A DNA stretch of 64,000 bases from an uncultured Candidatus Saccharibacteria bacterium (lineage in GTDB: Bacteria > Patescibacteriota > WWE3 > UBA101185 > UBA10185): positions 2,470 through 66,469 of the forward strand of contig CAYLMU010000003.1 in assembly GCA_964385105.1 (NCBI GenBank). Reading direction: 5' to 3'. Positions 3,201 through 59,512 of the stretch are shown here, one piece after another. The first letter of the stretch is position 1. Each line of letters starts with the position of its first letter. Below the pieces are notes generated by a model that did no database searches, had not been told where the DNA came from, and saw only the letters and a list, made by a program, of their open reading frames with translations. A program made the position numbers and the translations under genes.

Positions 3201-6200
3201 TATAGAAACTGTTTCACCATATGTTAAATTCGGTTCAAGAGCTGCAAAAATTGCGGCATCAGCTGACACCACATTAGTAAACTCAGTGTCAATTGGTGCA
3301 AGTCCAAGCACCCACACCATGTCGTTGTACGCATACTTAGGCACTTCAGGCAGCGAAGGGGGTACAATTGACAACACTATTGCGCGTATTTTATGGGAAG
3401 GGACTTCACAAGCTTCTACCTCATATGAAGATGTAGGAGGAGGTTGGTGGAGGCTTACCTACTCTGCAACACCTACCGCCAGCACAACAAGTGATTTTGG
3501 AGTGTGGCTTGCCGAGGGCGAAACAATTTATGTAGACGGCTTTATGCTTGAAGAAAAACCAACTGCATCAACTTACACAGACGGCTCACTGGGAGCAGGT
3601 TATTCTTGGAGCGGAACTATTAACGAATCTTCCAGTTCAAGAGCAGCTGCTGACATTGATTACACTGCATCCGGTAATATTGACGCATCTAAAGGAAGTA
3701 TAAGTTTTTGGCTTAAACCCAACTGGGATGGCGATGACGGGGTTGAACACACTTTTTTTGATGTCGATACAGCATCCACATTTAAAATTTATAAAACAAG
3801 CTCAAATGTACTAACATTTACAGACGGAACAAATACAGCTACCACATCAACAACATCCTGGAATAAGGGTGATTGGCATCATATAGTTGCTACCTGGACC
3901 TCAGGTGATATGGATATATATGTAGATGCTTCTGCCGGAACAGATGATTCATATTCGGCACCAACGCTAGGTACTAACTTTTATATTGGGCAAAATAAAT
4001 CAAACACTTCGCATGCCTCAGCTGTAATTTCTAATTTAAGAATTTATGACTCGGTACTTAGCTCAGCACAAATCACTGACTTATATCACTCGAATTTATA
4101 TACTTTTGAACAAGAGTATTTTGTAGAAGCATTTATCGGAGATAAAGGACAAGATCCTATTACGATTTTACATATGGACGAAGCTTACGGTACAACTGTA
4201 CATGATGCATCACAGTATAGAAATGATTTTGGACTATCGGGTGCTTCTTGGGTAGCTGAAAGTTCTGTGACCGGAGGTACACTTAGAACCCGATACATAA
4301 ATTTTGACGGCACCAACGATTACTTAATTAACGAAAACACCGAAGATTTTAGGTTTGGAACTGACTCTTTTTCAATTTCCGGGTGGTTTAGACATCCCAT
4401 AACTGTACCGGATGGAGGAACAACGGACACAATATTAGCTCATTACGATACAACCGGATATAAAATCTATATGAATTCAAGCGGTCAGCTATGTTTTGGT
4501 ATTGATAACGATTCAACATGGTCACCCACCGATACAATTTGTTCTACTATGAGCTATGCTGACTCTACCTGGCATCACTTTAGTGCAGTTAAAACCGGAA
4601 CTTCAAGTATTGCAATTTACATAGATTCAACCCAAGTAGGACAGAACACGTCACTAAGTGCTACTGCTTCTCTATCGCATAATAAACCAATGTATATAGG
4701 TATTGATAGTAATGGTTCTTCTAACCCCTGGGAAGGTGATCTTGATGAAATAAGAATATACTCATACGCCAGATCAGAAGAACAAATTAAAATTGATTTT
4801 GCAGGGTCTTTCGGGGTAGCTTTTGGTACAGGTATTGAAAGTCAGTTGCAAAACGGCCTTGTAGCTCATTGGAAAATGGATGAAAATACAGGTACAACCT
4901 TAAGTGATTCAAGTGGCAATGCCAATAACAGCCAGAACTTTTCAGGAAACACAACGTGGGCACCCGGAAGATATGGTTCAGGATTGTTATTTGACGGCAA
5001 TAATGACGCTGTACTATTCAATGAAACACCTTCAACAGATTTAGGCGCTTTAACAGACTCCTACACAGTGTCCACTTGGTTTAAAACTACTACCAATGCC
5101 TCATCTACAGTTGTATTAGTTAATAAAGGTGTGGGAGCTGCGTCACCGATGAGTTTGGAACTTTCAGATACCGAGGTTGCCCAGTTTAGGATATTTGGTG
5201 GAGGCAACTCTTCATTAGCTGTAGGATCTGCTGCTCTAAACGATGGCAAATGGCATTTAATTACCGGGGTTAGAGATGTTAATGAAGACAAAGTGTTTAT
5301 ATATGTTGATGGTGAATTAGCAGGATTAACTACCGACACATTGACTTCAAGTGCTGCAAATGACAGTCAGCTATCACTCGGTGCAGCAGAAGATCTTTCG
5401 GGTGATTTTACAGGTACAATGGATGACACACGAATATACAATAGAGCCCTTTCTGCGAGTGAGGTTCAAATGCTGTATCAATATTCAGCGGCACCTGTGG
5501 GATATTGGGACTTCAATGTAGGAACCGGTACTGTTGCTCAAGATGTCTCAAATAACAAAAATGATGGTACTTTAACCGGCATGGTGTCGTGGATTCCAGG
5601 CATATTCGGTTCCGGAATAGATACAAATACCGCATCATCCGGTGTGGAAATTACAGACCCTCCCGGCGGAGAACTCGACTTTGATGCTGATGACAGTTTC
5701 ACATGGATGGGATGGGTAAAAACTACAAATATTGGTACTTCAAGTATATTTTTACAAAAAGGAAGAATAGAAAACAGTGTAGCAGGATACCGTGCACGAG
5801 TAGACACTTTCGGTAGAGCAAGTTGCGGCGTTTCAAATGCAGTAGACACAGGTACTACACAAATATCCGGAACCAGTGTAGTTGCAGATGGTATGTGGCA
5901 CCATGTTACTTGTGTTGATATATATACAGGCAACGCATCCCCGAATGATAGAAGACTTTTACTTTATGTGGACGGTGTGTTAGAAAACTCATTAATACAC
6001 TCTGAAGAAATAAGTAATTCAACAGAAAATTTAAACATTGGACATATAAATGCTGCTACGTATTGGCAAGGGCAAATTGATGAAGTTAAAATTTACAACT
6101 ACGCCCGAACTCCCGAAGAAATTATCAAGGATATGAATGCGGGTCATCCGACACCCGGCTCACCCATTGGGTCAGCATTGGGACATTGGAAATTTGATGA

Positions 6201-17577: not shown

Positions 17578-18279
17578 TTATTTAACTTCAATCAAGTTTG
17601 CCGTTACAACAAGCCTATTTAAAGTAGTACCCGGAGGATCACATGTTTGTAAAGTCAAAGTGGGCTCAATCACCGGTCTTGTAATAGGATAAGTGTTCCA
17701 ACCTTCAAGCTTTTCTTTGTTTACAACATTGTAAACATAATCTTTGCCATCATAAAACACATGCACTTTATCCCCTACTTCAAGTTTTCGAAGCAAATTA
17801 AAAACTGTGGCGTATCTGCCCAATTCCCAAAAATCAGTAGAAGCATGAGCAAATAAGTAAACATTGCCCGGCTCATTAGAAGGATAGTTTGAAACAGCCG
17901 CATGTGCCACACCGTTTTTTAATGCATTTTTATACGAATCTTCGTTTGTTATCGCAACATCCGCAACCACAGGGGCATTTACACCTATTTTCTCAATTAC
18001 AAGCGAAAAATCTTTATTAACAGGCTCAAGCAGTACAGGGCTTGATGATAAATATCTTGCAAACACGCTATCATCCACTGAGTTTTCACTTGCAAACAAT
18101 GAATACTCCTGGGATTTTAGTTGTTTTAAAAAATACCACACTTCACTTCGAATAACAGGTCCAAAAGCCATTATAATAAACAAAAATCCTAATATAATGA
18201 GAGTATTTGAAATCGTTTTAAAAAAAACATATTCTGCTTTTGTTGGCTTATTTTTATAAGTATATTTTTTTGATTTCAC
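17578..18279 (-). CDS. Sortase-family transpeptidase.
   Basis: N-terminal TM anchor. Catalytic-region motifs LFAHAS (His) and LTLQTCDPPGT (TLxTC Cys motif). Confidence 0.7.
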   Translation of the reverse strand: MKSKKYTYKNKPTKAEYVFFKTISNTLIILGFLFIIMAFGPVIRSEVWYFLKQLKSQEYSLFASENSVDDSVFARYLSSSPVLLEPVNKDFSLVIEKIGVNAPVVADVAITNEDSYKNALKNGVAHAAVSNYPSNEPGNVYLFAHASTDFWELGRYATVFNLLRKLEVGDKVHVFYDGKDYVYNVVNKEKLEGWNTYPITRPVIEPTLTLQTCDPPGTTLNRLVVTANLIEVK

Positions 18280-18405
18280 AATAAAAGTTTAGCACAACAA
18301 AGTGCCGAAATAATCTTAATATTTGCCTGTAGAATTGTCATACAAGCGCTCGATTTACTTATAACAAAGGGTTTGGTAGTGTTCGAAAATAGTAAAAAAA
18401 TTTTA

Positions 18406-18480
18406 TGGTGCCCCCGGCAGGAATTGAACCTGCATTTTACCCTTAGGAGGGGTATGTTCTATCCGTTGAACTACAAGGGC
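18406..18480 (-). tRNA. tRNA-Arg(CCU) with encoded CCA.
   Basis: Reverse complement GCCCTTGTAGTTCAACGGATAGAACATACCCCTCCTAAGGGTAAAATGCAGGTTCAATTCCTGCCGGGGGCACCA folds as a cloverleaf: acceptor with two G-U pairs, D-arm GTTC/GAAC, anticodon stem TACCC/GGGTA, loop CUCCUAA giving anticodon CCU, T-arm GCAGG-TTCAATT-CCTGC. Confidence 0.7.
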
Positions 18481-18555
18481 AAGCACCTTAATATTTTATG
18501 ATAAAATGTACAATACCGCCAGTTTATCATAGAATTTTTATGTGGTTGTATATAA

Positions 18556-18643
18556 GGAGGGGTGCAGGAGTGGCTTATCTGGCCGGTCTTGAAAACCGTG
18601 CATGCGCAAGCATACGAGGGTTCGAATCCCTCCCCCTCCGCCA
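18556..18643 (+). tRNA. tRNA-Ser(UGA) (class II, long variable arm) with encoded CCA.
   Basis: GGAGGGG...CCCCTCC acceptor. G73 discriminator. Anticodon loop CUUGAAA gives UGA. Variable arm ATGC-GCAA-GCAT. T-arm GAGGG-TTCGAAT-CCCTC. Confidence 0.75.
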
Positions 18644-20341
18644 TGTGGAATTGATAGCTTCTTGAAGTTCTTTTTTGCTTGTTATACCAGCCAATACTTT
18701 GGGTTCTAACTGTTGTTTTATCTCTTGTATCTCATTCAATCCTTTTTCAATTAAGAAGAAGTGTTTTTGCTTATCAAACCATAGTTTTTTGTCTTTTAAT
18801 TTTAGGTTCAAACCAAGTGATTGAAGTATTTGTGTTTTGGTATTTGAATCTCCATTTTTAAGCCAGTAGTTAGCATATCTAGCAAAATTAAATGCTTTTT
18901 CTGTGTTTTCCGTTGCTGTTTCAACCCTGTTGTTATTATCGTTAATTAAATCCTCAACTTCTTTTATTCTTGATAGCAAATCTTTTCTTTGTAATACATA
19001 TTCCTGTTCTGAAATTCTACTACCATCTCTATTTTCAGGGGATACTTTAAGTTTAAGTAGTTCTTTTAGGGAATATTGTAAGTTCTCTAATTCTACATTC
19101 AGCCCGTTACAAGACTTTCTAATAACATTAAAATCAACGTCTGTAACTTCGTGAATATATTTGATAGCAAGATTCAAAAAGTCATCATCTATTTCAAATT
19201 TGCTTATTTCAGCCTCAATAGTTTGCTCTAAATTATCAACTCTCATAGCCTTTTCAGTGCAGTTAGGATTTGTCTTTTTAGCACAAGAAAGATATACATA
19301 ATGTAGGATTTTTGGATTATCCATTTGTTCAATTAGCATTCCACAATTAGTACAAGCATTTCTATCTTGGGTTTTAGCAAATTTAGTTTTACAGTTACTA
19401 CAAATTACTTGCCATTTCTCATGTGCTGTAATACTTCCTCCACAACCACCACAAACTAAAGCCTTTTTATATGGAAAATCCTTATCTTTTGAATAATGAC
19501 TTCTAGTTTTCTTACCAAGTCTAATTTGAAGCGTATTAAACTCATCAATTGTTAGCATTGCAGGGTGTTTACCCCAACATTCACCATCTTTACGTTGAAT
19601 ATAGCCATATATAAAGGGCTTAGATAGAAAGCGATACCAAGCAGTTCTACTCATTGGCTTTCCACCTTGTTTAAAAGATTTTCTAGTTTTAAATCCCCAT
19701 TTATCATTAAGAATATGCAGGGCTTCCATAAGGGAATAGCCCTCGTAGATTATTAAATAAATTGCTTTTTGTATTAAATCAAAAGAAACAGGGTCTTTAT
19801 CAATAGACTTTTCCTTTGTATAAGGGTTTGTAACATTAATATATCCTTGCAATGCTTGGGTTGGAATATATCCTTCTCGTAACTTTTTTCTATTTCCTCT
19901 TTTTACATTTTGGGATTTATCATCACTATCTTTTTTAGCCATGCCAAATTCAATAGTAAGCAGTAAAACATCGGAAGAATCACCAGTAAAAATCTTGTAG
20001 GGTGTTCTTAACTCTAAAATTTTGCCTGTACTCATTAAATACAAGAAGTCTCCTGCATCTTTTGGGTTTCTGCTTATTCTATTTGGTTGCCAACATAAAA
20101 CCCCATTTGCCTCACCTTTTTCTATTCTTTTTAGCATTTCATTAAATCGTGGTCTGCCTATTTTGTATGCACTCTGTGCCTCTGAAAATACCCCTACAAT
20201 CTTTAACCCTAGTTTTCTAGCATATTCTCTTAGTTCTTCCTCTTGTGCTTCTAGGGAAAGGATTTGTCTATCTTCTTCCTCGCTACTTTTACGAATATAT
20301 AAGAAGTATCTTTTTTCAATTTCTAGAATTTCATTAAACAT
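18575..20341 (-). CDS. Large serine recombinase (resolvase/invertase-type catalytic domain + recombinase domain + zinc ribbon + coiled-coil). The annotated C-terminal ~25 aa are translated from the antisense of tRNA-Ser.
   Basis: N-terminal YIRKSSEEEDRQILSLEAQ (catalytic Ser motif). Cys cluster CGGCGGS...CSNCK...CTNCG (zinc ribbon). Long coiled-coil region. The ORF 3' end (18575-18643) is antisense to the tRNA. Confidence 0.85.
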   Translation of the reverse strand: MFNEILEIEKRYFLYIRKSSEEEDRQILSLEAQEEELREYARKLGLKIVGVFSEAQSAYKIGRPRFNEMLKRIEKGEANGVLCWQPNRISRNPKDAGDFLYLMSTGKILELRTPYKIFTGDSSDVLLLTIEFGMAKKDSDDKSQNVKRGNRKKLREGYIPTQALQGYINVTNPYTKEKSIDKDPVSFDLIQKAIYLIIYEGYSLMEALHILNDKWGFKTRKSFKQGGKPMSRTAWYRFLSKPFIYGYIQRKDGECWGKHPAMLTIDEFNTLQIRLGKKTRSHYSKDKDFPYKKALVCGGCGGSITAHEKWQVICSNCKTKFAKTQDRNACTNCGMLIEQMDNPKILHYVYLSCAKKTNPNCTEKAMRVDNLEQTIEAEISKFEIDDDFLNLAIKYIHEVTDVDFNVIRKSCNGLNVELENLQYSLKELLKLKVSPENRDGSRISEQEYVLQRKDLLSRIKEVEDLINDNNNRVETATENTEKAFNFARYANYWLKNGDSNTKTQILQSLGLNLKLKDKKLWFDKQKHFFLIEKGLNEIQEIKQQLEPKVLAGITSKKELQEAINSTWRRGRDSNPRMLAHARFSRPAR

Positions 20342-20364
20342 AGTTTCCTTTTTTCTTCGTTGTG

Positions 20365-20373
20365 ATTATATCA
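20365..20373 (-). promoter_or_regulatory. Extended -10 promoter element (TGaTATAAT) for the recombinase gene.
   Basis: Reverse complement of 20365-20373 is tgatataat, ~27 nt upstream of the recombinase ATG, followed by an AAAGGAA SD-like sequence. Confidence 0.35.
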
Positions 20374-20397
20374 CTGTATTTCTTTCTAACTTTCCTA

Positions 20398-20542
20398 GTT
20401 TAACCGCTATTAGATAATCGGTTAAACACAAATTTAATACTTTTGCTTATAAGAGGGAAAATGGCGTGTGCATTTTCCCTCAAATCCCATTGTTTTGGTT
20501 GTTACAGTCGTCAAGGGCGCTACCGCGCCTATCCTTGACGAC
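20398..20542. promoter_or_regulatory. Cluster of three perfect inverted repeats between the recombinase and the 362-aa cargo gene. Candidate operator, origin (ori/oriT) or attP-derived site of the element.
   Basis: IR1 gtttaaccg-N12-cggttaaac (20398-20427). IR2 gggaaaatg-N7-cattttccc (20455-20479). IR3 gtcgtcaagg-N16(GC-rich)-ccttgacgac (20507-20542). Confidence 0.45.
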
Positions 20543-20549
20543 CCCAATA

Positions 20550-21638
20550 CTAAAGTGTGTTTCTTAAGTTTTGTAGTAGTTCCATAACGTCTGTATCGGG
20601 GGCGTTTACAGCAAGATTACTTGGTATTTTTAAATCAAATTTAAAATCTTTTAATGTGTTAATTATTCCTATATCAGCATTTTTCAACAAATCCAAGCGT
20701 TTTTTAACAGTGCTTAAAGTTAAATTATCTTCAAGGATAATTCTATTTTGCTTTTCCTGTGTTTTATCCGCACAATACCAAGTGTTTACAAACTGAAACA
20801 GATTTATAGCCTTCTTCTTATCGTAAACCGATTGTAGTTTGTTAAAAACTTCAATCATATCCATAGACTCATAATTGTTCGTTTTTACAAGTTCTGATAA
20901 TGACTGCTTAAGTAAATCCTCAATAATGTTGGTATCACGTATTCTGGTATAGTTGCTATCTTTCTCACCAAACACCTGTTGAATTTTCTTTTTGTGCATG
21001 GTTACTTCTGTTCTAAAGATACCTTCACTAAACTCATGTAATTTATATGCAAAGTTTGGGTCTATTTTTCTAATATCTTTAAAGTCGTGGGCTTTAAATT
21101 CCGGCTGTTTCTGATAAAACTTAAGTTTATATGTATTACCCCAATAAGTTAGCGATTCATCATCAATTAAAATCTTCTTTTTTCTTGGATATTCATAACT
21201 TGAAAGATTAGTGATAATACATTTACACTCTACATTTGATAGCAATTTCCAAGCGTAACAAATATCAAGTCTTTGAAGTATCCACAAAAATGGGTCTGGT
21301 AGTGTTATTTCATAAAACTGTTCAAGAATATGTTTTACTTTTTGCAATACATCAACAATTTTATCGGGATAAAGCATAAAGATATTTGTTCCATACATTA
21401 CTTTTGGTGCTGAAAATTCAATAAATATGTTATCCCAATTAAATGCAGATACATATATTTGATATCCATTTTCTTCTATAATTGGTTTTGAATAGTAGTA
21501 ACTTCCTTTTTTCTCATAAGTGTTTGTTTCTTCTTCCTGTATCTCTGGTTCAATTTCTCTTTTTTCATAGAATTTCTTTTTACAAACATCAAAAATATCT
21601 TTATTACTTGGGATTTTCCATCGGGTAGTGTCTAACAT
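20550..21638 (-). CDS. Hypothetical protein (362 aa), cargo of the integrated element. Possibly replication/maintenance-associated (speculative).
   Basis: Long ORF with normal protein-like composition. No recognisable catalytic motif. Located between the recombinase and a wHTH protein, with the IR cluster immediately 3'. Confidence 0.5.
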   Translation of the reverse strand: MLDTTRWKIPSNKDIFDVCKKKFYEKREIEPEIQEEETNTYEKKGSYYYSKPIIEENGYQIYVSAFNWDNIFIEFSAPKVMYGTNIFMLYPDKIVDVLQKVKHILEQFYEITLPDPFLWILQRLDICYAWKLLSNVECKCIITNLSSYEYPRKKKILIDDESLTYWGNTYKLKFYQKQPEFKAHDFKDIRKIDPNFAYKLHEFSEGIFRTEVTMHKKKIQQVFGEKDSNYTRIRDTNIIEDLLKQSLSELVKTNNYESMDMIEVFNKLQSVYDKKKAINLFQFVNTWYCADKTQEKQNRIILEDNLTLSTVKKRLDLLKNADIGIINTLKDFKFDLKIPSNLAVNAPDTDVMELLQNLRNTL

Positions 21639-21787
21639 TTTTCCCCCTTTGGAATTGGTCTGTAAATTAGTTTGAAGAAATTAAGAAATTGCAGGAATAG
21701 TTTTTCCGCTTCGTTATCAGTTAGTTCTATTTTGAATTTCTTGGAATACAGTTGTTTAAACTCCTGTATTGCTTGTTTGCTTAGCAT
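21632..21787 (-). CDS. Small ORF (51 aa; MLSKQAIQEFKQLYSKKFKIELTDNEAEKLFLQFLNFFKLIYRPIPKGEKC). Its stop overlaps the start of the 362-aa gene (ATGTTAG), suggesting translational coupling.
   Basis: Read directly from the sequence. Below the 60-aa ORF-track cutoff. Predicted helical small protein (regulator or Xis-like?). Confidence 0.3.
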   Translation of the reverse strand: MLSKQAIQEFKQLYSKKFKIELTDNEAEKLFLQFLNFFKLIYRPIPKGEKC

Positions 21788-21834
21788 AACTAAGCCCAAG
21801 CGTAGTGCTTAACAGGGGTTATGTTGCAACAGTT

Positions 21835-22404
21835 CTAGTCGTTATGTTCTTGTTCTAAAATTCTTCGCTTTACGGCTAATCTATAAGCTCCTTTGCCGTA
21901 TGATTCTATTCCTACAAAAGGGGATAATTTTGGGTAGTTTTTTAGTTTGTTTTGAAGATTGTTTAAAGTTGCTCTTGCTTTATCAGGGCCACAACCAAGT
22001 TGTTTAGCAATTAATTGAGTTTCTACAAATTCTCCCTTTGCGTCTGTTAATAGTTTAAATGCATTCTTTGCTTTGCTATTTTTCTTTTCAAAATCAATCT
22101 TTCCAAATCTTCCAAATTTATAGTATGTAAAGTTTCCACCCCACGAGAAATCAACAGGAAATTCTTTTCCCTTTAATGTATCAATAAATACTGGTTCTAT
22201 TTTCTCTTTTTTGGTAAGTAGTTTCTTTACTAATCCTGCAAACTCAAGTGGTGTTCTTACATCATGTTTTAAGGCTAAATACAGTCTTACTGCAATAACA
22301 CCCAATATCATTGCAAATACCCACCAAATTCTAATTACAGCCTCAAAAAAAGCTTTAGGAACACTATCCCACATTGTGTTTACTATTTCGTTATACATTT
22401 CCAT
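21835..22404 (-). CDS. Membrane-anchored protein with a C-terminal winged-helix DNA-binding-like domain.
   Basis: N-terminal TM (IWWVFAMILGVIAVRLYLAL). C-terminal ...FVETQLIAKQLGCGPDKARATLNNLQNKLKNYPKLSPFVGIESYGKGAYRLAV resembles wHTH regulators. Confidence 0.5.
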   Translation of the reverse strand: MEMYNEIVNTMWDSVPKAFFEAVIRIWWVFAMILGVIAVRLYLALKHDVRTPLEFAGLVKKLLTKKEKIEPVFIDTLKGKEFPVDFSWGGNFTYYKFGRFGKIDFEKKNSKAKNAFKLLTDAKGEFVETQLIAKQLGCGPDKARATLNNLQNKLKNYPKLSPFVGIESYGKGAYRLAVKRRILEQEHND

Positions 22405-22450
22405 ATATTTAATTTTGAGCAGGGGAATACATTGCTATTTTACTATATAA

Positions 22451-22497
22451 AACAAAAAAGCTCAGAACACCTGCATATGATTGCAAAATGTCTGAGC
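22451..22497 (-). terminator. Rho-independent (bidirectional-type) terminator 3' of the GC-rich gene.
   Basis: agctcaga...tctgagct 8-bp stem flanked by aaaaaa on one side and T-run on the other. Reverse complement gives stem then tttttgtttt. Confidence 0.5.
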
Positions 22498-22530
22498 TCT
22501 TTTGGTACTGCTTTCCTGACGTGTCGCCGA

Positions 22531-22923
22531 TTACCGTGCCGAAATGAACGCGTCGCGGTCGTACCAAACGCCCTTGTAGAACATCATGAAGCGCTCGTTA
22601 TGCCCCTCGTCGTACACGGTCGTCCAGAAGCCCGAAGTTTCCTTCGTCCAGCCGGCGGGTGCTTCGACTTCATAGAACAAATCGTCGTGGGTTTCCTTGA
22701 CCTTGAAGCCGAGACCTTCCAGATAGGGCTTGCTGTCGGGACCACTCGAAGCGCGGGCGTTCAGTTTGCGGGCGAGCATCCACTTGGCGCTTTCCGCAAT
22801 ACGGCGCTGTTCCGACTCCTCAATCCGCACGTTATCCCGCGCGGTGCGACCAGAAACGGTCATGGTGTCGGGGACTTCATCAGGGTTCGTACCAGGCTTA
22901 TACTTAGCCATTCTAACCTCCAT
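22531..22923 (-). CDS. Hypothetical 130-aa protein encoded by a conspicuously GC-rich (~55-60% GC) cassette with GC3-biased codons. Probably recently acquired from a high-GC donor.
   Basis: Strong SD (GGAGGTTAGAATG) and own terminator. The composition contrasts sharply with the ~35% GC surroundings. An overlapping plus-strand ORF (22432-22953) looks like a GC-driven shadow ORF. Confidence 0.55.
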   Translation of the reverse strand: MEVRMAKYKPGTNPDEVPDTMTVSGRTARDNVRIEESEQRRIAESAKWMLARKLNARASSGPDSKPYLEGLGFKVKETHDDLFYEVEAPAGWTKETSGFWTTVYDEGHNERFMMFYKGVWYDRDAFISAR

Positions 22924-23405
22924 TTGGGTAGTTTTGGATATGACTTATTATAACACACTATAGGGTTAGTAGCAACTTTTATAGTTGTTGATTGGTTGCC
23001 ATATATTAGCACATTCTGTGATAAAATGGGTTCTAACTTGGTATATAGTCGCCCGCCAGTTGTTTAAATCGCCTTTTTTTGATGCTAAATGTACCTATTA
23101 ATATGACTTGTTGTATTGATATGACGATATTTCTTTATCTTTAATGTTTAATTTCCAAAGTTGCTTGTGCTGATTCCTTGGGAAATTTGCTTAACTGCTC
23201 TTTTATGAGTAATTGCTAGGTATATCTCTACCACCCTTAGTATTTCCATATATTCATCACTACGTATATAATCTCTGAATATAAATCTATCAAAAAGGGA
23301 TAAAAGTGTATTTATTAATTTATCGTAGCCAAGTTGATTAATTGTGCGACCTATAGTATAGTTAGCGCTAGAAATTATTGTTAAGGATAAGATAGGGAGT
23401 TGAAA

Positions 23406-23570
23406 ATGAACAAGTCAGGCAAAGTTCGTTTTATTCGTCGTAGTGTGATTTCCTTGGCCATAGGGTGGTCAGTTTCCAGAATTTGGTTCGTTCCTCCTGT
23501 TACGGAAAGGGATCTCGTCGTCGTGCTGGTAATGTTGGTGATCATCTACATCCTGCATTACGCAGAATAA
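23406..23570 (+). CDS. Small hydrophobic ORF (54 aa; MNKSGKVRFIRRSVISLAIGWSVSRIWFVPPVTERDLVVVLVMLVIIYILHYAE), GC-elevated.
   Basis: SD-like GGGAG 8 nt upstream. Two predicted TM segments. Below the ORF-track cutoff. Speculative. Confidence 0.3.
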   Translation: MNKSGKVRFIRRSVISLAIGWSVSRIWFVPPVTERDLVVVLVMLVIIYILHYAE

Positions 23571-23796
23571 ATAGAAGATTTCACCACTAACCCAAACCCC
23601 AACTGGTTAACTACCAAGTTTTCCATGAGGGGTTTTCTTTTTATAAACCTTTTCCCAGTGATAAGATATTTATTGGATACATGGATAAATATTTTCCAAT
23701 ATCACTCCATGCTATCCGCCATAACACTGTAAATTTTAAATATGTAAAAATTCCATAAAAAAAGCTCGGGAGTCTCACTTTTATGCTAGCTAATTT

Positions 23797-24384
23797 TTAA
23801 TAATTATACAAATCCTCGTGCACCCTTTTATACGTCACCAACTCTTCAGGCTTAAACCACAAATTAATCTCTTCCTCAGCCTCCTCAATCGTACCAGATG
23901 CATGAATCATATTATAAATAGTTCTTTTTCGCAGTAGGCTGGTTATTGGCAATTCAAGCCCATAATCCCCTCTTATTGTGCCGGGTTGTGCTTCAAGTGA
24001 AAACGTAGGGCCAACCAATCTTCGTACCTTTTCAACAGCATGCGGACCTTCTAAAACAAATCCAAAAACCGGCCCCATTGTTATATAATCAACATTTGCT
24101 TTATTTACCATATCACCAATTGTTTCTGGATCATTTGTTCCGTAATATTCAGTAATATCTAAACCATGCATTTCGGCATCTTCAATGCGTAAATTTCCAA
24201 CCTTAATTTTCCATTCACTATCTTTTTTGTAATGATTAGCCACTTTTTCGGCATCGGCCATAAACAACTTCGCACCAACCATCTTAAGCCCGGCTCTTTC
24301 AAACCGGTTCAAAATTTCACCAATTATTCCGCGTTGTACCGCATCGGGTTTTATTAAAATTAAAGATCGTTCTACCACCACCAT
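23797..24384 (-). CDS. ndk: Nucleoside diphosphate kinase (longer than usual, ~195 aa, with an internal insertion).
   Basis: ERSLILIKPDAVQRGIIGEILNRFERAGLKMVGAKL... and C-terminal NMIHASGTIEEAEEEINLWF match NDK signatures. Confidence 0.85.
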   Translation of the reverse strand: MVVVERSLILIKPDAVQRGIIGEILNRFERAGLKMVGAKLFMADAEKVANHYKKDSEWKIKVGNLRIEDAEMHGLDITEYYGTNDPETIGDMVNKANVDYITMGPVFGFVLEGPHAVEKVRRLVGPTFSLEAQPGTIRGDYGLELPITSLLRKRTIYNMIHASGTIEEAEEEINLWFKPEELVTYKRVHEDLYNY

Positions 24385-55425: not shown

Positions 55426-55932
55426 CAGCATACGAAGCTGTACTCTAAAAACTGAACAAAACTTTGATTAAGCCCAATTACTAAAAGTCTTAATTTAAAG
55501 ATGCGCACACATTAGTACTGCTTAGCTAAACACATTACTGTGCGTACACTTGCAGCCTATCAACCTGGTAATCTCCCAGGAGGTACGTCCGATAAATCGG
55601 AAGAATTCTAATCTTGGGATGGGCTTCGTGCTTAGATGCTTTCAGCACTTATCCCGACCGAACGTAGCTACCCAGCGATGCCACTGGCGTGACAACTGGA
55701 ACACTAGAGGTTCGTCCGCTCCGGTCCTCTCGTACTAGGAACAGCCTCCCTCAGAATTCATACGCTCGTTGTGGAAAGAGACCGAACTGTCTTACGACGT
55801 TCTGAACCCATCTAACGCGCCTCTTTAATGGGCGAACAGCCCAACCCTTGGAACCTGCTTCAGCTCCAGGATGAGACGAGACGACATCGAGGTGCCAAAC
55901 ACCGCCGCCGCTATGAACGCTCGAGCGGTATT

Positions 55933-55965
<33 letters not shown>

Positions 55966-56456
55966 AAGTTCCGAGCTTACCATAAAGCATTCGGAAGATC
56001 ATTAAGACCTACTTTCGTAACTGCGCGACTTGTGTGTCTTGCAGTAAAGCTCCCATATACCTTTACGCTTACAGCGCCATTTCCATCGGCGCTAAGGGAA
56101 CCTTTGTGCTCCTGCGTTACTTTTTAGCAGGAAACCGCCCCAGTTAAACTGCCCATCAAGCATTGTCCTCGTACCCGATAAGGGCACACAGTAAGACTCA
56201 TAATATTAGAAGAGAGGTGTTACATTGGCGACTAGCTCACCTAAGCGAGCTAATCTCCCTCCTACGCTATACAACTAATATCACTTGTCAATGCCAGACT
56301 ACAGTAAAGCTCCACGGGGTCTATTTGTCCAACAACGAGTAACCGGCATCTTCACCGGTAGTTCAATTTCACCGAGTCCGTGATTAAGAGAGTGCTCAAG
56401 TCGTTACGCCTTTCGTGCGGGCCGGAACTTACCCGGCAAGGGATTACGCTTGTTAA

Positions 56457-57184
56457 TTCTTCATCTATATTAAATAGACTTTGAGTAACCTTCCCAGTGT
56501 TACTCCTGCATGTCGCCATGCAGACGCCACTATATCTTCATGCACTAGCATGTTTGGCGTATAGTGTGTGAGGATTCAAGAAACTTTGGAGTAACCTTAC
56601 GATTCATAAGACTACATAATAATGCAATCTCATGTATACCGTTAAAATTAAGGTGTTTCCTTTGTTCAATCAATTCCATAATTTCGCAGAATAATTGAAA
56701 ATCATTTTGCTTACTTGTTCTTAATTTGTGTGCCCTAAAAAAAGGTACTATTTTTGAATTAAGATCTGTAATGGATCTCACACAATAGCGATAAAGGTCT
56801 TCGTTGTGATTATCAAACCTTCTGTTTAAATATACTTTTCCACATCCAAAAAAGTTTTGGAAAATGTAAAGAACATTTTTACTCTTTGCTGATTGTGTGA
56901 CTATGAACTCTGGAAATACCTGCCAACCGGTTTTGCTCGTGGAGTTTTTTAGTATGCTTACTGTAAAAGCACCCTCCCCATCTACAAACCCAATTATCCA
57001 ACCAATGGTTTCTTGTCTTTCCTGCTGATTGTCCGCACTTGCTGCATTTTCACTCAACACATCCGAATATTATCCGAACATGTTAAGTAGCACAAGATTC
57101 TTTATTCTACTTTTAATAGACACTACCTTTTTTAGGTAGACGGAGTTTCCAGCATATAGCCAAATTTTACTATGGCGGCGCGAT
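56457..57184 (-). mobile_element. Group I-type intron in 23S rRNA (insertion near the E. coli 1917-1923 region, helix 69-71 area) carrying a homing-endonuclease ORF. Boundaries approximate.
   Basis: 23S exon homology (…ACGGCAGCAGTAACTATAACTGTTCTA) stops at ~57190 and resumes at ~56456 (CGTAATCCCTTGCCGGGTAAGTTCC…). An intervening ~730 nt contains a LAGLIDADG ORF. Confidence 0.6.
56545..57060 (-). CDS. LAGLIDADG-family homing endonuclease (single-motif type) encoded within the 23S intron.
   Basis: IGWIIGFVDGEGAF matches the LAGLIDADG motif. 171 aa, typical for homodimeric I-CreI-like enzymes. Confidence 0.8.
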   Translation of the reverse strand: MLSENAASADNQQERQETIGWIIGFVDGEGAFTVSILKNSTSKTGWQVFPEFIVTQSAKSKNVLYIFQNFFGCGKVYLNRRFDNHNEDLYRYCVRSITDLNSKIVPFFRAHKLRTSKQNDFQLFCEIMELIEQRKHLNFNGIHEIALLCSLMNRKVTPKFLESSHTIRQTC

Positions 57185-58033
57185 TCACCATAGAACAGTT
57201 ATAGTTACTGCTGCCGTTCACCCGAGCTTCGACCAAAAGCTCATTCACAATTGCACAAGTGCAAAAGTAAGATCACCTCCAGCTTTAACTTACGGGCACT
57301 GGGCAGGCGTCGGCCCCTATACATCCCCTTACGGGTTTAGCAGAGACCTGTGTTTTTGATAAACAGTCGCTTGAACCATTTTTGTGCCCCCTACGTATCT
57401 CTACGCAGGGCATCCTTTTCCCTAAGTTACGGATGTAATTTGCCTAGTTCCTCGATCACGGTTCTCTCGTTCGCCTTGGTATTCTCTACCTGTCTACCTG
57501 TGTCGGATTGCGGTACGGATATCATAGGATCTCCCTAGAAGATTTTCTTGGAAGCTTAACGCAGCTAAATCAGCGGTATTACCCGCTTTTCCACCGGCTC
57601 GTATAAACGCCTGTGCGGATTTGCCTACACAGACTGACTTGCCTTCTGGACTGGAATCCTTAACCAGCCTAGCCTATCAAACTCCGTCCCTCCATTGGTA
57701 ATAATGATCAAATGATAGTGCAGGAATATTAACCTGCTGTCCATCGGTTACGCCCTTCGGCCTCACCTTAGGACCGACTTACCCTCCGTTGACTGACATA
57801 GCGGAGGAAACCTTAGACTTCCGGCGGGGTGGGTTTTCACCACCCTCTCGTTACTCATGCCCACATTCTCACTTGATGCCGCTCCAGCATACCTCACGAT
57901 ACACCTTCAGTGCAGACATCAATGCTCCCCTACCATCCATTAAAATCTAAAAGAAATTAATGAATCCACAGCTTCGGTTCTTTGCTTTAGCCCCGTTAAA
58001 TCATCGGCGCGAAACCGTTGAACTAGTGAGCTG

Positions 58034-58076
<43 letters not shown>

Positions 58077-58645
58077 AGCTGTCTAAACAGTTTCACTTCC
58101 TTACCCACTAAGCAAAGATTAGGGACCTTATCTGATGGTCCGGGTTGTTTCCCTCTCGTACCAGGAACTTGCTCCCTAGTACTGACTCCTAAGTTGAAGA
58201 TTTGCGCATTCGGAGTTTGGTAAGAATGGGTACGCTTGCGCGCCCCAATTCTTTTCAGTATCTCTACCTCACAAATCCATAATAACTTAGGGCTATACCT
58301 AAATATATTTCGGGGAGAGCCAGCTATCGCCGAGTTCGATAAGCGTTTCACCTCTTACCACAAGTCATCCCAGCATTTTTCCGCATACACGGGTTCGGTC
58401 CTCCGCCTGTCTTTCGACAGGTTTCAACCTGCTCATGGTAAGCTCACTCGGCTTCGGGTCTAATAACATATACTAAAGCGCCCTTTTAAGACTCGCTTTC
58501 GCTGCGTCTACACAACTGAGTTGCTTAAACTTGCATATGTTATTAACTCGCGGGCTCATTCTTCAATAGGCACAACATCACACCACAAGGGTGCTCTGTC
58601 AGCTTGTTTGCATACGGTTTCAGGTTCTATTTCACTCCCCTAACA

Positions 58646-58677
<32 letters not shown>

Positions 58678-58942
58678 TGTTCACTATCGGTGTCCTCATG
58701 TATTTAGCCTTAGCTGATGGTCCAGCTGTATTCACACAGGGTTTCACGTGCCCCATGCTACTCTGGATAAACCCAAGAAGGCATTTTTGTTTCGAATACA
58801 GGGCTATTACCTGCTATGGCGCAGCTTTCCAGCTGGCTTCTTCTACAAAAATACTTTTTTACTTCTTTGTCATTCAAGATGACGTAGGGCTTTCCTAACC
58901 CCCTAATCTTAAAACTTTGTTTCAAAATATTTGTGCAATTAA

Positions 58943-58987
58943 GAAAAACAATCTGCAGGCCTAAAAGGCCGAAGCCGTTTTTCGTAT
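58943..58987. repeat. 45-nt structured repeat, copy B, inside the 23S rRNA domain I (candidate intervening sequence/expansion).
   Basis: gaaaaacaatctgcaggcctaaaaggccgaagccgtttttcgtat. Lies after the GAGTAGCGGCGAGCGAAAAGG...AGCCCAAACC block, where E. coli has no corresponding sequence. Confidence 0.7.
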
Positions 58988-59512
58988 TGCAAAATTTTTA
59001 AGACTTGGGTTTGGGCTCATTCCTTTTCGCTCGCCGCTACTCAGGAAATACCTAATGGTATCTTTTCCTCCAGTTACTAAGTTGTTTCAGTTCACTGGGT
59101 ACCCATCTATGCACCTATGTTCGCCCGAAGGCAAATTTCAGCACATGATCACCTCATATTACTATGGATGGAGTTTCCTCATTCGGAGATTCCCGGTTAA
59201 TAGCGCTTCTTGTCAGCTCACCGAGACTTAACGCAGACTTGCACGTCCTTCATCGGCACAAGGACCCAAGGCATCCACCGTATGCATTAGTATCTTTAAT
59301 ATCAAGACGAATTGAACTTAAATCTAGTTTTGTTCAGTTTTCAAAGTACATGCTACGTTTTACATTTTCAAAAACTGTCCTCGGGCATAGCCCTGCGGAT
59401 TGTTTTTTCAAATTGTAAAACTTCGCCACAATTAAGTGACTTGTTGGCAATTCGTCGCTTTCGCTCCTATTGCACATCAATTCACTAAACTCACTTCATT
59501 CGTTAAGTGACT

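Follow-up and report, generated by a model that had tools for sequence, protein, structure and literature searches.

Three inverted repeats between a rolling-circle initiator gene and a large serine recombinase gene as the likely replication origin of an integrated element in a WWE3 bacterium

Small integrated elements that carry their own rolling-circle initiator together with an integration function, such as the RS1 satellite of CTXphi and the pSAM2-type elements, replicate after or around excision. Here we analyze an element of approximately 3.9 kb that is integrated at a tRNA-Ser gene of an uncultured WWE3 bacterium. It lies within a stretch of 64,000 nucleotides (nt) of contig CAYLMU010000003.1, and this whole stretch is called the window throughout. 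The element consists of four genes, which encode a protein of 189 amino acids (aa), a protein of about 51 aa, a rolling-circle replication initiator (Rep) and a large serine recombinase. Three perfect inverted repeats (IR1, IR2 and IR3) lie in the intergenic region between the rep gene and the recombinase gene. Judged from its sequence, this region is most likely the replication origin of the element, with IR1 as the nick hairpin of a rolling-circle double-strand origin. To the overall reading, a rolling-circle origin of an integrated element in which IR2 and IR3 most likely act as single-strand origin, we assign a probability of roughly 0.68.

The closest described origins are those of the staphylococcal plasmid pT181 and of the Ff phages (M13, f1, fd). 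Members of the pT181 plasmid family undergo cleavage at AAAACCGGaTACTCT/AATAGCCGGTT, i.e., at TCT/AATAG (PMC8407400), and the dyad recognized by their Rep, ICRIII, is centered 23 bp downstream of the nick (PMC4797284). The hairpin IR-II of pT181 is composed of AACCGG, CTACTCTAATAG and CCGGTT, with a 12-nt loop, CTACTCT AATAG. In M13, the gene II protein (pII) cuts between 5780T and 5781A, at CTTT/AATAG (PMC5405960, PMC11765958). Hairpin D of M13 (GAGTCCAC, GTTCTTTAATA, GTGGACTC) has an 8-bp stem and an 11-nt loop, GTTCTTT AATA(G). The Ff intergenic region has its (-) origin located upstream of its (+) origin (PMC5405960); hairpins B and C of the former are followed by hairpins D and E of the latter.

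An earlier note on this DNA had reported three perfect inverted repeats within 145 bp, and all three were found at the positions claimed. All three are assigned to the minus strand. IR1 (20398–20427) has the arms GTTTAACCG (20398–20406) and CGGTTAAAC (20419–20427) and a spacer of 12 nt; IR2 (20453–20481) pairs GAGGGAAAATG (20453–20463) with CATTTTCCCTC (20471–20481) across 7 nt; IR3 (20507–20542) pairs GTCGTCAAGG (20507–20516) with CCTTGACGAC (20533–20542) across 16 nt. The arms of IR1 and IR3 are those given in that note, whereas the arms of IR2, described as 9 nt long, extend to 11 nt and form a stem of 11 bp. The spacer of IR3 contains a nested 4-bp stem (GCGC-N4-GCGC), and the whole is a composite GC-rich hairpin with an outer stem of 10 bp, a bulge of 4 nt, and GCGC-GGTA-GCGC as its inner stem-loop. 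This hairpin begins 7 nt past the rep stop codon, and IR2 follows.

Counting perfect inverted repeats whose arms span 9 nt or more and whose spacers measure 3–20 nt, we found 14 in the whole 64 kb, three of which fall within the 145-nt stretch (Poisson probability ~5e-6). When the 208-bp intergenic region was shuffled 5,000 times, two or more such repeats were obtained in 0 cases. The single-stranded DNA of this region gives a folding energy of -36.1 kcal/mol (z = -8.0) for the minus strand and of -34.5 kcal/mol (z = -7.4) for the plus strand. A search of 20250–20650 against Rfam with E values up to 1 gave no RNA family match, and at gathering thresholds the whole window yielded rRNA and tRNA only.

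On the minus strand, which is the rep-sense strand, IR1 reads GTTTAACCG, ATTATCTAATAG, CGGTTAAAC and forms a 9-bp stem with a 12-nt loop, ATTATCT AATAG. This loop is as long as that of pT181 IR-II and its last 8 nt, TCTAATAG, are identical to it; AACCG/CGGTT is common to both stems, which differ in length (9 bp in IR1, 6 bp in IR-II). In the window, pT181 and M13 alike, the nick motif is located on the rep-sense strand. A cognate initiator of the Rep_trans/Phage_CRI superfamily is encoded adjacent to IR1. A replication origin had been among the functions offered by the earlier note, and for IR1 it is well supported by the adjacent rolling-circle initiator, the nick sequence and the geometry. 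By analogy with the described origins, we predict a nick between T20412 and A20411 of the minus strand (ATCT/AATAG). The case for a nick hairpin is built on loop sequence and geometry, not on covariation.

The region as a whole resembles that of the Ff phages. Both have an initiator of the pII (Phage_CRI) family, a T/AATAG nick in a hairpin loop, a second element downstream of the nick (in M13 a dyad centered at 22 nt), and, on the same strand, extra hairpins upstream, with the minus-origin coming before the plus-origin; in both, the cis functions are assembled in one intergenic region. However, the Ff intergenic region is situated upstream of rep and comprises about 500 bp, whereas that of the window is situated downstream and comprises about 200 bp. 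IR2 and IR3 have no sequence similarity to the Ff hairpins A–C, and the window region also bears the promoter of the integrase gene, unlike Ff. In pT181, the origin lies inside rep instead of in the intergenic region downstream of it, the downstream element is a dyad instead of a pair of direct repeats, and the initiator belongs to Pfam Rep_trans, whereas the initiator of the window belongs to Phage_CRI and has no significant match to RepC. Furthermore, the window replicon is found in a candidate-phyla-radiation host, carries a serine recombinase, and is integrated in tRNA-Ser. From RS1 and the pSAM2-type elements it differs by the use of a large serine recombinase at tRNA-Ser instead of XerCD/dif or a tyrosine integrase, and from pSAM2 also by the absence of transfer genes and a far smaller gene content.

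Rep (362 aa; 20550–21638, minus strand) is a rolling-circle replication initiator of the Phage_CRI family with a predicted Rep_trans-like fold. It matches Pfam Phage_CRI (gene II protein of filamentous phages) above the curated cut-off and PHROG 702 ('replication protein'), and a profile of 13 homologs aligned with M13 pII at an hhalign probability of 93.8%. The invariant Tyr175 of Rep is thereby aligned with Tyr197 of pII, the DNA-linking residue that is bound to the 5' end after the cut (PMC5405960). The motifs of the Rep_trans superfamily, RxD, YxKxxE with the nucleophilic tyrosine, and L/WxRxE (PMC5714925), are represented by R123-L-D125, Y175-Q-K177-Q-P-E180, and R209-T-E211, which are invariant across the 13 homologs; the last of these, motif IV, reads I207-F-R209-T-E211, with I207 in the place of L/W. 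The hhalign comparison of Rep with pT181 RepC was not significant, and both a sequence-only comparison with PDB and a Foldseek search were negative. Thus, the link to pT181 consists of fold, motifs and origin, not of close homology. Distant relatives of Rep were found on small circular contigs of 2.5–5.6 kb, which fits a family of plasmid-type initiators.

Conjugative relaxases, among them ICEBs1 NicK and Tn916 Orf20, also belong to the Rep_trans superfamily, and part of its enzymes act in replication as well as in transfer (PMC5714925). Within this superfamily, the sequence of an oriT is indistinguishable from that of a double-strand origin. Rep could accordingly be a MOBT-like relaxase and IR1 an oriT, from which a single strand would be exported to another cell or into a helper phage particle instead of being replicated vegetatively. 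We regard this as improbable, given that Rep belongs to the Phage_CRI (replication) family, that the circular contigs with its distant relatives resemble autonomous replicons, and that the ~3.9-kb element has no gene for a coupling protein, type IV secretion or morphogenesis. Pfam and PHROG scans of the four genes gave no match to Zot, phage structural, morphogenesis, coupling-protein or type IV secretion families. An inovirus (filamentous) prophage was rejected on the same scans, as neither a pI/Zot-type ATPase nor coat proteins are present among the four genes; without coat or morphogenesis (pI/Zot) genes, the element by itself is not a phage.

For a comparative view, the contigs of the 13 Rep homologs were combined with further loci from genome and metagenome scans. 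The gene order of the family is rep, a gap of approximately 170–225 bp, and the recombinase gene, and Rep is followed by the large serine recombinase in 36 fetched loci. The earlier note had made conservation in homologous elements the touchstone for the dyads; they are indeed conserved, being present in about 12 distinct related elements, and all three occur in every member with a Rep identity of at least 45%. In an alignment of 12 sequences, the proportion of paired cells is 97.8%, and in 8 pairs both partners have changed; no shuffle and no slid register attained these values. RNAalifold independently recovers the same helices. The stem of IR2 covaries (GAGGGAAAATG, GAGGTGAAATGG, GGTGAAATGG) and its loop varies among relatives in both sequence and length (4–7 nt). 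The outer and inner stems of IR3 are kept by compensatory changes (GTCGTC, GATGTC, GAAGTC in the outer stem; GCGC/GCGC to GTGC/GCAC in the inner one). Stem sequences of IR2 and IR3 are retained across Reps that are just 45–50% identical, a group in which the 5' arm of IR3 lies inside the last rep codons.

IR1 is conserved in its own manner. Its 12-nt spacing is fixed, its arms are perfect with one compensatory change in the stem (CCG/CGG to CTG/CAG), and the spacer is its most conserved part. The CTAATAG at the spacer end is invariant in 20 of 20 family loci, down to a Rep identity of 32–36%. At this level of identity (loci L042–L044) the intergenic region measures about 100 bp and a single GC hairpin replaces IR2 and IR3; this hairpin is located at the 3' end of rep, inside its coding sequence. 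Here IR1 is nearly unchanged and followed by a new palindrome, and the other intergenic sequence is replaced. No second copy of IR1 was detected in the window, even when 3 mismatches were allowed, the IR1 pattern had no matches in IMG/VR, and no other copies of any IR half-site were found in 18000–23800. A repressor operator, which had also been proposed for the dyads, is poorly supported by this pattern: the loop length of IR2 ranges from 4 to 7 nt, IR3 has a nested and bulged structure, IR1 is conserved most strongly in its spacer, and no half-site recurs.

With all sequences anchored at the nick, position +22 to +23 holds conserved sequence in the family. The center of the second element was measured at +22 for the M13 dyad TGTTCCA/TGGAACA (hairpin E), at +23 for the pT181 dyad GCACA/TGTGC (IR-III), and at +22.5 for the palindrome of L042–L044 (ATTGCAAATTTGCAAT in L042). 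In the window, the corresponding place is taken by two direct repeats (20382–20397, minus strand), TAGGAAAG (20397–20390) and TAGAAAG (20388–20382), which are separated by a single T and centered at about +23. From their position, these repeats are likely the Rep-binding (specificity) site.

The recombinase promoter is located immediately beyond. Its extended -10, TGATATAAT, is found on the minus strand at 20373–20365, as the earlier note stated, and lies within a small dyad, GTGAT-ATA-ATCAC (20362–20374, minus strand). Across the family, TGnTATAAT is conserved together with the CACAAC after it. RNAalifold predicts pairing between GTG and CAC, and the other lineage retains nothing of the dyad but GTG...CAC. 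The dyad around the -10 hexamer is a possible operator. IR1, on the other hand, does not occupy the -35 as had been supposed, since it ends at 20398, 4 nt upstream of the -35 hexamer position at 20388–20393. With a 17-nt spacer this hexamer reads AAAGTT and has 0 of 6 matches to TTGACA, i.e., there is no recognizable -35. The -35 position is overlapped by the direct repeats at 20382–20397, not by IR1. As these repeats are likely bound by Rep, a regulatory link to the recombinase promoter is plausible, and the arrangement suggests that origin occupancy may be coupled to recombinase expression.

On the rep-sense strand, IR2 and IR3 lie in non-coding DNA approximately 26–130 nt 5' of the predicted nick. 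We consider them structural hairpins, not operators; a stem that covaries around a loop of variable length and sequence, as observed for IR2, is difficult to explain as a binding site of a dimeric protein and agrees with a hairpin. They provide what is expected of a single-strand origin, namely a conserved stable structure on the displaced strand near the double-strand origin (z = -8, covariation). A rolling-circle replicon requires a lagging-strand origin, and the element has almost no further non-coding DNA. No T-run follows either repeat (IR3 is succeeded by TGTAAC and IR2 by TTATAAG). Because of the missing T-runs, the Ff-like order of the hairpins, the need for a lagging-strand origin and the scarcity of other non-coding DNA, the single-strand origin is the role we favor for IR2 and IR3, tentatively and at somewhat below even odds. 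That they are 3' structures of rep or terminators, which is compatible with a single-strand-origin role, appears possible although on balance unlikely.

The latter view can be extended to a transcriptional account of the whole region, in which IR3 and IR2 terminate the rep mRNA or stabilize its 3' end, and IR1 is an operator or activator site at which a dimeric regulator, with the 189-aa helix-turn-helix (HTH)-like protein or the 51-aa protein as candidates, acts on the recombinase promoter. The position of IR3 directly past the rep stop codon, with IR2 after it, agrees with this account, as do the conserved extended -10 about 27 nt downstream of IR1, the constant 12-bp spacing and perfect arms of IR1, which suit a dimer, and a weak HTH match of the 189-aa protein (E 0.04). 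Yet a terminator scan of 19800–21200 revealed no terminator-like site to go with the absent T-runs, although canonical sites composed of a hairpin and a T-run occur elsewhere in the window and also at the right end of the element (22455–22503). Moreover, the stems of IR2 and IR3 are kept across Reps that are only 45–50% identical, and the GC hairpin of L042–L044 lies within rep coding sequence. As to IR1, its invariant part is the asymmetric spacer CTAATAG, equal to a known nick site; its center lies near -54 and not over the promoter, and the element contains no second copy of the half-site. We therefore judge the transcriptional account to be distinctly unlikely.

Several observations weigh against the rolling-circle origin or against the single-strand-origin part of it. 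Locus L039 is a mosaic, in which a Rep of the 45% group (group 2) is joined inside IR3 to IR2, IR1 and recombinase of group 1. Thus, IR1 can travel with the recombinase module and is not strictly bound to its own Rep; the two IR1 variants differ little, which makes cross-recognition plausible. Dimeric protein sites also covary as palindromes, so covariation alone is no proof of a hairpin. The element at +23 in the window lineage consists of direct repeats and not of a dyad as in pT181 and M13. The fetched contigs of this element family had no terminal overlaps, and neither a circular nor a single-stranded form was found among them. Finally, the palA region of pT181 carries the ssoA signatures GCCGAGAAAAC and TAGCGA. 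The ssoA type was tried and rejected for the window: the CS-6-like TAGCGC in the IR3 loop becomes GGAAGCGC, GGAAGCAC or GGGAGCGC in relatives, and IR2 and IR3 of the family contain no conserved RSB-like block. As the ssoA signatures RSB and CS-6 (TAGCGT/A) are not conserved, the hairpins are not filed under ssoA.

In L039 itself, the segment 6080–6160 corresponds to IR3 of the window. It is of the window type from the 3' arm of IR3 onward, and the recombinase encoded there is 97.8% identical at the aa level. With the breakpoint inside the IR3 hairpin, the outer IR3 pairs are mismatched.

All genes of the element share the minus-strand orientation. The large serine recombinase (588 aa; 18575–20341) matches Pfam Resolvase (E 8.6e-20), has weak zinc-ribbon matches, and belongs to PHROG 95, integrase (E 3.6e-52); it serves integration and excision of the element. 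Two small genes upstream of rep (21632–22404) encode the 189-aa protein, for which a membrane helix is predicted in addition to the weak HTH match, and a protein of 51 to 55 aa. Their counterparts in related loci, of 182–214 aa and about 50 aa, are likewise encoded ahead of rep. The left end of the element is formed by its integration target, tRNA-Ser(tga) (18556–18643, plus strand; ARAGORN). The right boundary is marked by a hairpin, AAAAAAGCTCAGA-N23-TCTGAGCTCTTTT (22455–22503), that resembles a bidirectional terminator. Similarity to related elements spans from about 18553 to 22459–22503, with the right-hand limit of homology at 22459 against L012, L013 and L037 and at 22503 against L001. 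We looked for direct repeats that mark the element ends and found none, their absence being expected for a serine recombinase; the ends were instead placed by homology.

These ends bear on the proposal that the dyads are attP half-sites. In this case the repeats would be attP-like or accessory sites of the large serine recombinase or of a directionality factor, to which their position directly upstream of the recombinase gene and the joint transfer of IR2 and IR1 with the recombinase module in L039 would correspond. However, attP is split in an integrated element and cannot be internal, while the repeats are located approximately 1.8–2 kb from either end (tRNA-Ser at 18556–18643 and ~22460–22503). 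In addition, the IR1 loop matches the nick site of Rep, and IR1 with its 30 bp falls short of the att sites of large serine recombinases, which comprise about 40–50 bp. The half-site proposal is consequently not supported, and we consider recombinase sites of any of these kinds highly improbable.

The overlap between recombinase and tRNA gene recurs in related elements. The last ~23 codons of the recombinase run antisense through the complete tRNA-Ser(tga) gene, giving the C-terminus ...RRGRDSNPRMLAHARFSRPAR, and related elements likewise end in tRNA-Ser genes, with the anticodons cga, gga and tga. The arrangement is found at 5070–5160 in L007, 5319–5408 in L010, 8891–8981 in L012, and 8021–8111 in L040. 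A recombinase tail encoded by tRNA-Ser genes with three anticodons suggests that the attachment site lies inside tRNA-Ser and that the C-terminal tail of the recombinase varies with the insertion site.

Taken as a rolling-circle origin, the 208-bp region would be the cis-acting replication region of the ~3.9-kb element and might operate as follows. After excision by the serine recombinase, IR1 would be extruded as a cruciform from the supercoiled circle. Rep, as a tyrosine nicking-joining enzyme of the pII/RepC type, would bind to TAGGAAAG/TAGAAAG, centered 23 bp downstream, and make its cut at ATCT/AATAG in the loop of IR1, on the rep-sense strand (T20412|A20411, minus strand). Tyr175 would remain joined to the 5' end, and the 3'-OH would prime the leading strand toward the recombinase gene. 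One round later, the regenerated IR1 hairpin would be cut and the ends rejoined, which would free a single-stranded circle. On the displaced strand, IR3 and IR2 would fold just upstream of the nick, most likely as single-strand (lagging-strand) origin, and the succession of IR3/IR2 and IR1 would repeat the order of the Ff (-) and (+) origins. Bound to the repeats at the -35, Rep may also modulate recombinase expression.

A further elaboration combines origin and switch. Rep at the +23 repeats would mechanically couple the replicating (excised) state to recombinase expression, and the element with its four genes would represent a minimal replicon of candidate-phyla-radiation bacteria that is RS1-like and derived from an inovirus, with IR3 possibly doubling as a packaging or priming signal in the presence of a helper. 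Taken as a package, we hold this to be unlikely, with a small chance of being correct.

The hairpin with T/AATAG nick and its partner at about +23 is common to a staphylococcal plasmid, a filamentous phage of E. coli and integrated elements of the candidate phyla radiation. This evidence ties the design of the origin to the Rep_trans/Phage_CRI superfamily as a whole, including cases in which the proteins can hardly be aligned. The type of origin is already known. As for its carrier, no description of an element with Rep, large serine recombinase and tRNA-Ser target in candidate-phyla-radiation genomes was found in the searchable literature, i.e., the four-gene Rep-recombinase element appears without a published account that we could find. 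The cassette of rep, an origin of about 200 bp, serine recombinase and tRNA-Ser target is compact and delimited, brings a precise prediction of the nick site, and could be considered as the backbone of vectors that replicate or integrate. To our knowledge, very few genetic tools exist for candidate division WWE3.

Many of the distant Rep relatives were observed on metagenome and cyanobacterial contigs (L023, L066–L103), with 33–36% identity over the catalytic core. These contigs have sizes of 2.5–5.6 kb and terminal overlaps of 117–127 nt, and are likely small circular plasmids; one originates from a Pseudanabaenaceae culture and has a coverage of ~1448x. Hairpins with a YTAATA loop were sought beside the distant relatives, to see whether the motif accompanies Rep in the absence of a recombinase. 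The search gave 54 matches compared to 11–23 in shuffles, mostly from the close family, a weak signal that was not used as evidence. CTAATAG hairpins on the cyanobacterial plasmid contigs were rejected, as they proved to be plain palindromes, in which one and the same position is taken by either CTAATAG or CTATTAG. In L015 (2300–2329) and L036 (5621–5651), hairpins with a GC stem and the loop TGTTACTAATA are located beside rep and are followed by a second dyad, and a like hairpin with the loop TGTTACAAAATA and a second dyad after it is found in L050 (1869–1896). All three are similar to IR1 and M13 hairpin D but oriented oppositely with respect to rep, and were likewise not used as evidence. 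No recombinase match was found in L015 and L036; rep runs off the end of L036.

Just outside the right end of the element, an island of 53–59% GC extends over 22505–22950, compared to 30–35% for the genome. It contains an open reading frame of 130 aa (22531–22923, minus strand) with no Pfam or PHROG match and is missing from the closest relatives L012, L013 and L037, which have other sequence at that place. Recently acquired foreign DNA or a chimeric assembly could account for the island. Further to the right, 23029–23214, 23217–23324, and 23633–23721 of the window match parts of L040 987–3471. Immediately upstream of the element, L040 carries a second module of another type, in which a REP_ORF2-G2P Rep of 312 aa overlaps a serine recombinase of 521 aa. 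The window seems to hold decayed and rearranged remnants of a second Rep-recombinase element in 23029–23721. Finally, the 23S rRNA gene of the window (55492–59300, minus strand) comprises 3,809 nt compared to a model of 2,925 positions, and contains approximately 880 nt of inserted sequence, which like the base composition would agree with a genome of the candidate phyla radiation; insertions in rRNA genes are known from candidate-phyla-radiation bacteria.

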